In this document: in pieces, positions 1,639 to 16,662 of the stretch
How positions within the stretch are numbered: position 1 is the first letter of the stretch
How the letters are laid out: every line of letters starts with the position of its first letter
Source of the DNA: Mustelus asterias
Taxonomy: Eukaryota
Length of the DNA: 64,000 nt
Direction of reading: 5' to 3'
Assembly: GCF_964213995.1 (NCBI RefSeq)
Contig: NC_135821.1
Span: 4,774,001 to 4,838,000 of the forward strand
Notes under the pieces: model-generated
Told to the model about the DNA's origin: nothing
Databases searched by the model: none
What the model saw: the letters and a program-made list of their open reading frames with translations, nothing else
Position numbers and translations under genes: made by a program

Positions 1639-1724
1639 TATTTATACCACTGGGACATCCTACATTCAAACTGGGAATGACATCACCAATGATGATTGAC
1701 AACCCCTGACAGCCAATCAGGAAT
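1639..1724 (-). promoter_or_regulatory. Ferritin A core promoter: TATA box, CRE-like TGACATCA, CCAAT boxes
   Basis: TATAAATA at 1639-1646 on the minus strand; module shared with genes B, C, D, F, G, H. Confidence 0.8.
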
Positions 1725-2053
1725 TCTTTCGATACCAATCAAGTAGCTTTTTCGGGTACCAACGTAATAAACGAACTCAAATTAACTTAGGGACAAAGTA
1801 AAAGGGGCGGCTCCCCAAAAGGAAGGGGGGAACAGCCCGAACCAAAATCAAAGTCGAAAGGAAACTTAAAACGTCAAACCAAAAGGTGATTATCGGGGTC
1901 GATAATCAGCCCCTGCGGCGCCCAGCGGTCGCGGAAGGCGTCAACCGCGCCCGTGGACACCGCATGCTCCCTCTCCAGAGACACCTGGCCGCGAATGTAG
2001 CCGCGGTAGAGGGGCAGACAGTCGGGATGGACGGCCCCGTCGATCGCCCGCTA
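1725..2053 (-). mobile_element. 5'-truncated Tx1 retrotransposon inserted in the ferritin A CCAAT box
   Basis: Near-identical to about 47680-48000; flanked by a 16-bp direct repeat ACAGCCAATCAGGAAT (1709-1724 and 2054-2069). Confidence 0.9.
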
Positions 2054-2235
2054 ACAGCCAATCAGGAATCAGCCATCAATTCAGGCACCAATTAACAAAG
2101 GGTGTTGCGGGGGGGAGGGTGTGGGAGCCAGAGCCAATCAGAGCTTTGGAATCCAGGCAGGTTTGGGAGATTCACCTCGATGATGTCACTGCTTCTGGGT
2201 TCCTCGACCATCTTCCAGCGTGAAAATGTCTCGTA

Positions 2236-2522
2236 GAATAGAATCCCTACAGTGCGGAAGGGGCCATTTGGCCCATTGTGTCTGCACCCAATCTGCGAGA
2301 GTGAATTCCTCCGAGGCCCTATCACTATAACCGCACATATTTACCCTGCTAATCCCCCAACCTACCCACTTTGGGACAGTAAGGGGCAATTTATCATGGC
2401 CAATCCACCTAACCTACACATCTTTGGAGTGTGGGAGGAAACCGGAGCACCCGGAGGAAACCCACGCAGACATGGGGAGAATGTGCAAACTACACACAGA
2501 CAGTGACCCAAGGCCAGAATTG
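2236..2522 (-). mobile_element. HE1-like V-SINE with CR1/HER1-type tail
   Basis: V-domain plus 3' tail GGCCAAATGGCCCCTTCCGCACTGTAGGGATTCTA on the minus strand. Confidence 0.8.
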
Positions 2523-3130
2523 ATTTTTTGATTTGATTTGATTTATTATTGTCACATGTATTGGGATACAGTGAAAAGTATTGTTTCTTGTGCACTATAC
2601 AGACAAAGCATACCGTTCACAGAGAAGGAAACAAGAGAGTGCAGAATGTAGTGTTACAGTTATAGCTAGGGTGTAGAGAAGGATCAACTTAATGCGAGGT
2701 AGGTCCATTCAAAAGTCTGACAGCAGCAGGGAAGAAGCTGTTCTTGAGTCGGTTGGTTCGTGACCTCAGACTTTTGTATCTTTTTCCTGATAGAAGAAGG
2801 TGGAAGAGAGAATGTCCGGGGTGCGTGGGGTCCTTAATTATGCTGGCTGCTTTTCAAAGGCAGCGGAAAATGGTAGACTGTATCAATGGGTGAGAGGCTG
2901 GTTTGTGTGATGGATTGGGCTTCATTCACGACCCTTTGAAGTTCCTTGCGGTCTTGGTCAGAGCAGGAGCCATCCCAAGCTGTGATACAACCAAAAGGAA
3001 TGCTTTTTATGGTGCATCAGTAAAAGCTAGTGAGAGTTGATCTTCTGAAACAATAGAGGCGTTGGTGGTCCTTCTTAACTATAGCATCGGCTTGGGAGGG
3101 ACCAGGACAGTTTGTTGGTGATGTGAATAC
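2523..3130 (-). mobile_element. Rex1/Babar-like LINE 3' fragment
   Basis: Tail TGTGACAATAATAAATCAAATC on the minus strand; homologous to the copies encoding ...[29 protein letters not shown]. Confidence 0.75.
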
Positions 3131-14300: not shown

Positions 14301-15947
14301 CAGTTGATGTGCCTTTGGACTTTCAGAAGGCTTTTTGCCAGGTCTGTCGTTGTGTTAGTGGGTAAAATTAAAGCATGTGGAATAATGGTGCAATGTATTG
14401 CTTGGATTGAGAATTGGTGACAGACAGGAAACAGTGGAAATAAATGAGTCTTTCTCCCCCCAAGTGGCAGTGACCAGTGAGGTCCTGCAAGGATCAGTGT
14501 TGACAATATATACACACATGTGACCAGGATGAGGGAACCAAACGTAACATTTCCAAGCTTGCTGATGACAAGAACCAGACAGAATTGATAGCCGAGGGTG
14601 CAAGGTGGTTAAGATGAGTGAGGGGCAAAGACAGCAGATGCAGTACATGGCCAAAGGGAAAATTATACACTTGTATGAAAAACAGAAAGGGGATAATATT
14701 TAAAATGGTTGTACATGGAAAGTGGGGATGTACAGAGGGATCTGAGTGTCCTTGTACACCAGTCAATGAACATGGAGGCAGCAAGCAGAGAGAAAGACAT
14801 GTTGGCCTTCATTGCAGGAACATTAGAGTTTGGAAGTAGACATGTTTTACTGCAATTATATACCAGGCAGCCATAGAGGGCAGAGGTTCACTAGGCTGAT
14901 AGCAGGGTTGACAGTGGGACTACAAGGAGAATTGGTTTGAATGGACTTGTGTTCACTAGTTTAGAAGGATAAGGGAAGGTCTGATGGAAACAATTCTAAT
15001 AGGGCTGGCCATTTCCCCTCACCCCCCAGTTATGAACCAGCAGAATTCACTATAGAAGGTCAAGTCATGAAACATATTCAAGTTAGAGACAAGTAACTGA
15101 AGATTTGGGGAGAAAGGAGGATTATGGCATGGAGATCAAGGATCCGTCATAATCATACTGAATGGATTAGGACTCAAGGGGCCTGGTCTAATTTCTATAG
15201 ACCCTCCTAGCCAAGCAGGATAGTGCAGTCTCTAAAGTAGAGATGATTTAAGGGGCCCAAATCCCTGGCCAATATCTCTATTTAATAGGTGAGCTCTGAA
15301 AAGAGAGATGATTTCATAAGCTGACCTAGCCAAATTCAATTTGATTTTAAAAAAGAGAAACTACCAAAAGCAGGGATTTTATTCCACATCCCATCAAATT
15401 CAACTCACATTCTTCCTGTCAGTGAAGAATTAAAATCAGAACAGAATCTGCTCAGTGTCCAGTCAACGTAATCTGATGATTTGTGTTACTTTAAAAAAGG
15501 TGTTTAACAAATAATTCTTCTTTCTATGCTCAAAAGACCCACATCCAGAGGGAGCTCTCCTCCCCCCACCCCCCCCAAAAAAAAATTGTTGGAAATCACC
15601 TGACCAGCTTTGTGCTCAGTTCCAAACTCAGGCAGCAGCTGAACTTGTTTCATCCATTAAACCCCTCAATGGAGAGCAGCTGTTACAAGGAGCAGCCCAT
15701 TCACTCAACATCACCCTGGATTACACACTGGAGACACTCACCCCCAGGGATGGAAGACAAGAGAAATATCATTTATAAAGTCACTTCATTCAACTGGAGA
15801 AGATCCCACATTTCAGCCCACAGTGACAAGGAACACAAAGCTCACCATGGAGAGGTAAACATAGGAGGAATAGAGCTCCAGGTTGATCTGCTTGTTAACA
15901 GCATCCTCACAGTCCTTGTGGTAGTTCTGACACACTTGGGAAGCCAT
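11326..15947 (-). CDS. Ferritin M/heavy-like subunit, gene C (174 aa, intact)
   Basis: Exons 15947-15846, 12951-12805, 12129-12004, 11475-11326, all [13 protein letters not shown] variant; ends LTLGE*. Confidence 0.93.
12285..12743 (+). mobile_element. Rex1/Babar-like LINE 3' fragment in intron 2 of ferritin C
   Basis: ORF 12368 [27 protein letters not shown]; tail TGTGACAATAATAAATCAAATC. Confidence 0.75.
13880..15200 (+). mobile_element. Old, highly degenerate CR1-type LINE in intron 1 of ferritin C
   Basis: Remnants such as GCAAATGTAACCCCACTATTTAAA (ANVTPLFK), GACTTTCAGAAGGCTTTTG (DFQKAF) and TTGCTGATGACA (ADD). Confidence 0.6.
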
Positions 15948-16005
15948 CTCACTGAGGATAAGAGTCACACAACAACAAGCTGACCTCTGCCCTCACAAGC
16001 TCTTG

Positions 16006-16091
16006 TATTTATACCACTGGGACATCCTGCAGTCAAACTGGGAATGACATCACCAATGATGATTGACAATCCCTGACAGCCAATCAGGAAT
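16006..16091 (-). promoter_or_regulatory. Ferritin C core promoter (TATA, CRE-like, CCAAT)
   Basis: TATAAATA at 16006-16013 on the minus strand; shared promoter module. Confidence 0.8.
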
Positions 16092-16662
16092 TCCTTCGAC
16101 ACCAATCAAGTAGCTTTTTCGGCACCAATCAAGTAAACGAACTCAAATTAACTTGGGGACAAAGTAAAAGGGGCGGCTCCCCAAAAGGAAGGGGGGAACA
16201 GCCCGAACCAAAATCAAAGTCGAAAGGAAACTTAAAACGTCAAACCAAAAGGTGATTATCGGGGTCGATAATACACCCCAGCCCCTGCGGCGCCCAGCGG
16301 TCGCGGAAGGCGTCAACCGCGCCCGTGGACACCGCATGCTCCCTCTCCAGAGACACCTGGCCGCGAATGTAGCCGCGGTAGAGGGGCAGACAGTCGGGTC
16401 GGATGACCCCCTCGACCGCCCGCTGCCTGGACCCTGTAGGTGGCAAGCTTTGCCAGGCCCAGGAGCAGGTTCACAAGGAGCTCATCCTCCTTCCCCGCCC
16501 CCCCTCCGCACCGGTGCCTGTAGATCAGGAGCGTGGGGCTGAAGAGCAAACAAAACATCAATAAAAAGTTACTATGCTAATTAAAAAGGGAGTGCAGCCT
16601 TTGACATTCAACGTAGACATGATTCACAGGCTCTTCAAGATTACAAAAAGGGACCCAGAGTC
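16092..16662 (-). mobile_element. 5'-truncated, apparently chimeric Tx1 retrotransposon in the ferritin C CCAAT box
   Basis: Same 3' junction as in gene A (CAGCCAATCAGGAATTC.TTCGA.ACCAATCAAG); the distal part resembles the 58052-58722 subfamily (LAKLATYRVQ). Confidence 0.85.

Follow-up and report, generated by a model that had tools for sequence, protein, structure and literature searches.

A young Tx1-clade LINE of Mustelus asterias: insertion at one base of a Gypsy-type LTR and probable look-alike sites at ferritin CCAAT boxes

The window analysed here, a stretch of 64,000 nucleotides from Mustelus asterias (NCBI RefSeq assembly GCF_964213995.1, contig NC_135821.1; C21:4774001-4838000 in our numbering of contigs), contains part of a ferritin gene cluster in which the promoters of three genes, called A, B and C, carry the 3' end of a Tx1 retrotransposon. 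We consider it probable that these inserts come from a young Tx1-clade long interspersed nuclear element (LINE) that inserts at TACCTGAT-like words and places about half of its copies at a single base of a Gypsy-type long terminal repeat (LTR), the promoter of which it has likely captured, and that the CCAAT box of the ferritin genes, which resembles these words, served several times independently as a secondary site. The window was assigned to the cluster by searching the 3.68-Gb genome with a 22-nt ferritin promoter word, which occurs 27 times, 25 of them on C21 (4.67-4.93 Mb) and 2 on C11; one exon of the window also has a Ferritin match in Pfam.

The element and its position in the LTR

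By sequence comparison the source of inserts A, B and C is a young Tx1-clade LINE. A full-length copy, which a preliminary description of the window had called for, is approached by two near-full-length ones recovered from the genome (L070 and L110, 6.3 kb), each with two open reading frames (ORF1 and ORF2). In L110 the ORF2 product matches an APE endonuclease (PF03372) and a reverse transcriptase (RT; PF00078) above the cut-off, and the best named element for ORF2 is Tx1L of Xenopus, with 54% identity over 100% of the 839-aa query; a zinc knuckle in ORF1 is suggested by a weak zf-CCHC match (E 0.0011, 19.4 bits, below the 20.8 cut-off). The hallmarks of target-primed reverse transcription are present, i.e. 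5' truncation and target duplications, the latter in 88 of the 129 copies with a visible 5' junction and mostly 12-17 bp long. An exact 35-mer of the 3' untranslated region (UTR) has 342 matches in the genome, and the 3' end found in insert A (the A-type) defines a separate subfamily with 71 exact matches. The longer young copy that lies in the window at 45508..48016 is flanked by TACCTCATTG at 45498 and 48017.

Site preference was read from 149 classified junctions, namely 84 of the 90 fetched from the first 100 of the 342 UTR matches (C1-C8) and 65 of the 71 A-type copies. Left out were L041, L184, L188 and L192, which share the site of a tandem neighbour, L043 and L044, first read as duplicates and later as units of one tandem array, and L069, L104 and L114, whose tails were not parsed (L114 later proved to be a CCAAT promoter site). 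An LTR insertion, L328, is likewise outside the 149, insert A and L258 are counted in the 71-copy census only, and the class of L066, L098 and L175 was changed by eye. Seventy-one junctions fall in the LTR, 76 are dispersed and 2 lie at zp3-like promoters; the corresponding figures in the A-type census are 35, 32 and 3, with 1 copy at a ferritin promoter. By the criterion of Kojima (PMC4494074), a Tx1 family counts as target-specific when more than 20% of its flanks lie in one repeat. LTR flanks (71/149) exceed this share, and neither CCAAT boxes (ATTGG at 5/149) nor ferritin promoters (1/71 A-type copies) reach it.

The favourite LTR has 256 exact sites, and among the first 100 of these 89 have an A-rich tail upstream, 9 are empty and 2 are of other kinds; genome-wide there are 26 exact empty sites. 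The insertion base is 49 bp upstream of the TATA box of the LTR and 133 bp upstream of its AATAAA. That the target repeat is an LTR follows from L121, where two copies with TG...CA ends stand 6.3 kb apart around gag-, RT- and integrase-like frames (the Pfam matches being weak, RVT_1 3e-5 and rve 0.027), and from three solo copies with 5-bp duplications. On these sequence features the target is a Gypsy-type LTR retrotransposon, which may be of the Mag lineage. Dispersed sites read TACC(A/T)NAT, also in the 5' copy of the duplication, and duplications begin T(A/C/G)CC. The LTR words TACCTGAT and TCCCTGATT are closely matched by the ferritin word TTCCTGATTGG; in the favourite LTR, TAAAT stands in the place of the CCAAT of related LTRs. 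A further site close to the 5' end of the LTR is used in opposite orientation by L009, L025 and L067.

The preliminary description had proposed that the family targets a specific sequence, namely the CCAAT box of the ferritin genes or CCAAT boxes generally. The preference for a sequence stands, with the Gypsy-type LTR as the main target; the choice of CCAAT or ferritin as that target does not. Enrichment of ATTGG had been named as a test, and within the first 18 nt this word occurs at 5/149 junctions (background 2.4% per counting window, p 0.29), or at 6/150 when L114 is added. It is present in 5/76 dispersed sites (p 0.04) and in 2/71 A-type targets, and insertions are absent at the site in 23 of the 27 ferritin promoters. 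As a target class CCAAT boxes are minor yet strongly over-used.

Among 70 non-tandem duplication pairs 13 differ in their first 4 nt, and in 13/13 the 3' copy is the one nearer to TACC, TACT or TCCC (L311 is doubtful, and the tail parse favours a leading T), as would follow from an RNA with target sequence at its end that anneals to the nicked strand. Neither AATAAA nor ATTAAA is present in the 3' UTR of the Tx1 family, and this, together with about 60 nt of LTR-type sequence inside the duplication of a further ferritin insert, D, fits read-through into the LTR; we infer such read-through for the element RNA. All three near-full-length copies examined (L070, L110 and L084) have about 100 bp of the LTR, including its TATA box, before their 5' end. 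Private indels and substitutions, such as a 7-bp deletion in L110, are common to the 5' and 3' LTR copies of the same locus, which indicates that the duplication was made on the spot and put the LTR promoter ahead of the element. About ten more LTR segments lead into element heads and not into the LTR end. Capture of the LTR promoter is likely on this pattern, and the element would be transcribed from the duplicated promoter. A search for transduction up to the LTR poly(A) site gave no clean case among the 20 of 55 LTR loci in which no 5' part of the LTR was matched by pattern, several of these being pattern misses.

In the mechanism that we propose, the APE endonuclease would nick the bottom strand at the motif. 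The RNA, having no poly(A) signal of its own, would continue into the LTR, and its UACCUGAU end would pair with the nicked DNA and prime reverse transcription. A full-length complementary DNA with an LTR-derived head would then anneal about 100 bp downstream and leave the LTR promoter before the new copy.

Several loci show further arrangements of the family. At L042-L044 (C2:8.12-8.14 Mb) long copies form head-to-tail arrays, with a duplicated LTR TATA segment before each and with differing head types, and other head-to-tail pairs, about 6-7.4 kb apart, occur on C1, C2, C4 and C8. L037 (C1:112.24 Mb) and the downstream flank of L183 contain, just downstream of the copy, a 5' piece joined to a Tx1 3' part in a SINEU-like manner; the 5' piece is presumably U2 small nuclear RNA-like.

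Inserts at the ferritin promoters

Inserts A, B and C are, as the preliminary description had it, 5'-truncated Tx1 copies in the orientation of their genes (all on the minus strand), with their 3' ends at one CCAAT motif. This reverse CCAAT box precedes the TATA boxes by 70-80 bp. The clean 16-bp target duplication described for A was found as ACAGCCAATCAGGAAT at 1709 and 2054, where it brackets the insert. Differences among the three in 5' ends, tails and ferritin 5' UTR types were seen again in our comparison, and genes F, G and H were indeed empty (sites at about 40950, 52930 and 58857). At the 3' junction of B the tail runs together with the target. The 5' part of C is about 80% like the young family and represents an old subfamily; C has no 5' duplication, and about 100 bp of upstream promoter are missing at its 5' junction. 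Insert D, with a 10-bp duplication at 28795 and 28990, occupies the same site and belongs to a second family. The filled ferritin promoters are thus 4 of 27, and among the 27 the young Tx1 family is at this site in A, B and C only. The inserts displace the upstream CCAAT boxes. A motif-only model, which is rough and assumes 413-5000 copies, predicts 0.001-0.011 insertions in 27 sites, and the inserts are therefore no chance finding. Among public runs no RNA carrier was listed; contigs of four runs, compared with A alone, yielded fragments only, none joining across the insert.

On sequence grounds A, B and C are not one duplicated or ancestral insertion; they arose separately. In their common part the three bodies match the young family near-exactly, and no derived change is common to them. 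The promoter tree places B beside the empty 41-kb promoter (support 100/100) and D beside empty promoters, and a promoter clade A+B+C is rejected (approximately unbiased test, p-AU 1e-53; L164, a long branch, was omitted). Because the promoters are mosaic, this tree supports independence and does not prove it. The comparison of elements with flanking promoters that had been suggested earlier thus finds no single A/B/C clade matching the flanks, and, with the separate 3' end of A, it goes against the alternative raised in the same place, of one insertion spread by duplication or conversion.

The most concrete form of that alternative is an old C-like insertion that spread to A and B through duplication or gene conversion of neighbouring promoters. 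A, B and C are adjacent, the downstream flanks of A and C are 96.9% identical and such spread did occur for many zp3 copies, yet we regard this explanation as improbable: the target copy is retained directly beside different 5' ends in A and B and is lost in C, A ends in another subfamily, B groups with an empty promoter and D is of another family. Specificity for the ferritin CCAAT box, or for CCAAT boxes generally, would account for four inserts of two families in one ferritin CCAAT box and for the few other exact TGATTGG insertions. We think it very unlikely indeed, given the low ATTGG counts at junctions and A-type targets, the predominance of empty ferritin promoters and the LTRs, which hold about half of the copies.

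The second family (L196-L225, L346-L365) has 407 first-look candidates. Its end, AAAAGAAA, is common with the Tx1 family, as is the LTR target, and by eye most of the 29 other copies among the matches listed use the LTR position of the Tx1 family. No ORF or ORF2 similarity was found in the 1.5 kb upstream of 30 matches, and the longer copies are non-coding over about 2.5 kb, their 5' end lying beyond the stretch covered. The family also includes a 70-87-bp piece about 80% like zp3 exon 1. It is probably a passenger of the Tx1 machinery.

Table 1. Positions of ferritin genes, target sites and inserts in the window
Feature	Position	Strand	Remarks
Ferritin gene A, start codon region and TATA box	1571..1648	-	TATA at 1640
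Target-duplication copy downstream of A	1709..1724	-	16 bp, contains the CCAAT box
Insert A	1725..2053	-	Tx1 ORF2 C-terminus, 3' UTR, A-type 3' end and one 23-nt tail unit
Target-duplication copy upstream of A	2054..2069	-	
Ferritin gene B, start codon region and TATA box	7362-7438		TATA at 7430
Insert B	7502..7869	-	Young Tx1 3' end lacking 27 bp internally; of three tail units two are full and the third merges with the target
Target copy upstream of B	7870..7885	-	Intact, at the 5' junction
Ferritin gene C, start codon region and TATA box	15938-16015		TATA at 16007
Target site downstream of C	16076..16091	-	
Insert C	16092..16662	-	Mosaic of a young 3' part, which extends to about 16398 and has two tail units, and a 5' part of the old subfamily
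Ferritin gene D, start codon region and TATA box	28648-28727		
Insert D	28805..28989	-	Same ferritin site, 185 bp; 3' end of a second, apparently non-coding retroposon family and about 60 nt of LTR-type read-through
Empty target site	40950..40965	+	Ferritin promoter at 41 kb, closest paralog of B
Longer young Tx1 copy	45508..48016	+	RT end to tail, two units, not in a promoter; nested repeat 46600-47112
Empty (variant) target site	52929..52944	+	Ferritin promoter
Empty target site	58857..58872	+	Ferritin promoter

The cluster also includes a ferritin exon 1 with another promoter type and an in-frame stop (window 32380-32700), which is outside the count of 27 promoters. Intron 1 of gene A contains an old Tx1 3' end that has a long run of C (window 842-1040). 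Older Tx1 relatives in opposite orientation lie 180-800 bp upstream of several ferritin promoters (L139, L145, L155, L156 and L162; window 58057-58705 and 39717-40157); five of them have one common junction, which points to an insertion spread by gene duplication. Old sense-strand Tx1 copies are found 110-150 bp upstream of ferritin promoters at L148 and L161.

Overwriting, other promoters and alternative readings

Overwriting of old copies by younger ones appears, from the sequences compared, to be the simplest reading of the mosaic copies and of the ordered tail units. In many copies divergence rises from 0-2% at the 3' end to 7-17% further up, as in insert C, and six zp3 loci with one old, ancestral 5' junction in common differ in their identity to the young family, from 85% up to 98.6%. 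Among 24 multi-unit ends 23 of 33 adjacent units are unlike; the GCC-type unit, the youngest, is upstream in 7/7 mixed pairs and the GTG-type is downstream in 8/8. The element's own 3' end contains TACTTGATTGG, one base off the target word, through which a new copy could enter an old one, replace the 3' part of the latter by homology and leave one more 23-nt unit. A new copy would prime at the old end, its 5' end would join the old copy by homology, and the old last unit would stay downstream. On that reading the ferritin site received about eight visits; with units produced by slippage the number would be at least four. Repetition of another kind is seen at L108 (C7:60.53 Mb), where five 99-bp repeats, each a 66-bp Tx1 end plus its duplication, look like the seed of a satellite.

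The zp3-like promoters belong to a multicopy gene with a ZP-N domain in exon 1 and zp3-like exons. Their promoter word occurs 59 times, and of the first 30 occurrences 22 are immediately preceded by the family in sense orientation, 7 are empty and 1 is accompanied by relatives on the opposite strand. Since the six loci mentioned above share their 5' junction, much of this filling is one old insertion spread by gene duplication; at a minimum, the young copy L271, whose paralog group is empty apart from it, the ORF1 fragment L386 and two stacked second copies are separate events. The fragment at L386 / L281 (C19:16.61 Mb), upstream of a zp3-like promoter, consists of ORF1 only with an A-rich tail and suggests a prematurely polyadenylated RNA. 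A search for double tail units gave 43 matches, many leading into promoters, and multi-unit tails occur in 3/3 ferritin copies against 6 among the first 100 matches in the genome (p 7e-4 when computed with 7). Exact TGATTGG insertions in promoter-like DNA were found at three loci, on C8 (six units), on C1499 and at C21:64.1 Mb; with the ferritin and zp3-like promoters, these make host promoters a genuine, if secondary, class of hot spots. The last is upstream of aminotransferase-V exons; for the genes behind the other two no convincing Pfam match was obtained among 47 frames. One further insertion, found on C4 and two unplaced contigs (L075, L267 and L268), has two or three tail units, stands beside further old Tx1 ends and possibly marks another multicopy promoter.

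Transcripts expressed at a high level in zebrafish follicles include ferritin H and zp3 (PMC1488847), and by analogy the shark ferritin and zp3 paralogs are probably egg genes. The reverse CCAAT word YTGATTGG fits the motif core plus tail, and accessible promoters of egg-expressed multicopy genes would then be hot spots in which the copies are truncated dead ends.

It is also conceivable that the family is guided mainly by promoter context, for which chromatin open in the germ line or a factor like NF-Y, bound at CCAAT/TATA promoters, would be candidates; LTRs, ferritin and zp3 would then simply be instances of such promoters, and the DNA word would only fix the cut. In the LTR, at ferritin and at zp3 alike the site precedes a TATA box in sense orientation, the three promoter-like loci were entered exactly at TGATTGG and the zebrafish transcripts point the same way; moreover, TNCCTGAT is estimated to occur about 480,000 times, so that a second determinant is needed. 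On the other hand, the favourite LTR has TAAAT in place of CCAAT, the 76 dispersed sites are not promoter-like and long RNA-DNA homology to the LTR can explain the LTR preference without tethering, and we therefore treat guidance by context as a possibility and not as our first choice. In an extended version, which we consider possible but less likely than not, the LINE would seek oocyte-active RNA polymerase II (Pol II) TATA/CCAAT promoters and live on LTR promoters. Chromatin or NF-Y would draw it to ferritin, zp3 and other egg genes, where it would rewrite old copies, and the tail would be both a tally of visits and a growing CCAAT array that retunes the host promoter. An improbable explanation, in our opinion, is that the promoter hot spots reflect retention rather than targeting, inserts that add CCAAT boxes through their tails being tolerated or favoured in redundant multicopy genes. 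Each tail unit contains TGATTGG, multi-unit tails are concentrated at promoters and the upstream CCAAT boxes are displaced by the inserts, as retention would have it, but neutral intergenic DNA should keep inserts at least equally and promoters are nevertheless far over-hit, and the age order of unlike units is better explained by re-insertion than by selection on slippage.

A number of points weigh against the reading that we prefer, i.e. a LINE with a loose word, a main site in the LTR and look-alike sites at host promoters. The larger sample comes from C1-C8 only, as the first 100 of 342 matches. Dispersed sites have no TATA enrichment (5/76 versus 45/572 comparison windows), their CCAAT enrichment is marginal (33/76 versus 183/572, p 0.03 uncorrected) and CpG and strict NF-Y words are not enriched at the 76 sites. 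The reference for unit age was a GCC-type copy, a choice that favours the result obtained, and some of the loci are paralogs. Ten of the 33 adjacent unit pairs are identical and could be slippage, and ordinary ectopic gene conversion could also produce mosaics. Many zp3 insertions go back to a single old event, and several of the unplaced contigs appear to be duplicates; the assignment to egg genes is carried over from zebrafish, and endonuclease action, transcription and chromatin guidance are deduced from sequence.

Comparison with known systems

It is useful to compare the shark family with other elements that return to the same kind of site. Tf1 of fission yeast and the P element of Drosophila are promoter-seeking, with repeated insertion just upstream of Pol II start sites, and are integrase or transposase elements with host-factor tethering. 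The repeated insertion upstream of Pol II start sites is alike; tethering of the shark family would be hypothetical. Closer in kind is Tx1L of Xenopus laevis (YTX2_XENLA), the type element of the Tx1 clade, which resembles the shark family in ORF2 (the 54% identity given above) and in having an APE endonuclease and RT. According to PMC4494074, Tx1L inserts into another transposon, Tx1D, whereas the shark family uses a Gypsy-type LTR and, secondarily, gene promoters.

Targeting of LTR retrotransposons by Tx1 families is already known from crocodilians, where Tx1-8_Crp and Tx1-4_AMi prefer them (Kojima 2015, PMC4494074). An LTR insertion position, a TATA-including duplication, host-promoter hot spots and overwriting do not appear in the accessible text for these two families, though the supplementary figures may hold them. 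In SART1Bm and R1Bm a target-like sequence at the 3' end of the RNA has been proposed to anneal to the nicked bottom strand and start reverse transcription (PMC7265360). These elements are of other clades and have strict telomere or ribosomal DNA (rDNA) targets, in contrast to the shark family, half of which is dispersed at a loose word. R2 is co-transcribed from its rDNA target, and target homology aids its integration (PMC4494074). Dependence of transcription on the target would be a feature common to R2 and the shark family; R2 differs in its restriction-like endonuclease and Pol I target, as opposed to the predicted APE endonuclease and Pol II LTR promoter of the shark family. In the literature searched, which was seen in part and lay outside subscription papers and Repbase reports, no paper was found on Tx1 at CCAAT boxes, at ferritin or zp3 promoters, or on an LTR duplication that includes the TATA box; within it, neither the ordered tail record nor the spill-over onto promoters of ferritin and zp3-like genes has a counterpart.

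The case illustrates that a target-specific LINE with a loose cutting word can shift from its transposon host onto the promoters of host genes. Its RNA-corrected duplications, 100-bp promoter duplications and ordered tail units are dated and countable footprints of LINE priming and 5' joining, two steps that are poorly understood. Finally, the filled and empty ferritin and zp3 paralogs provide a natural test of the effect of such inserts on the expression of egg genes.

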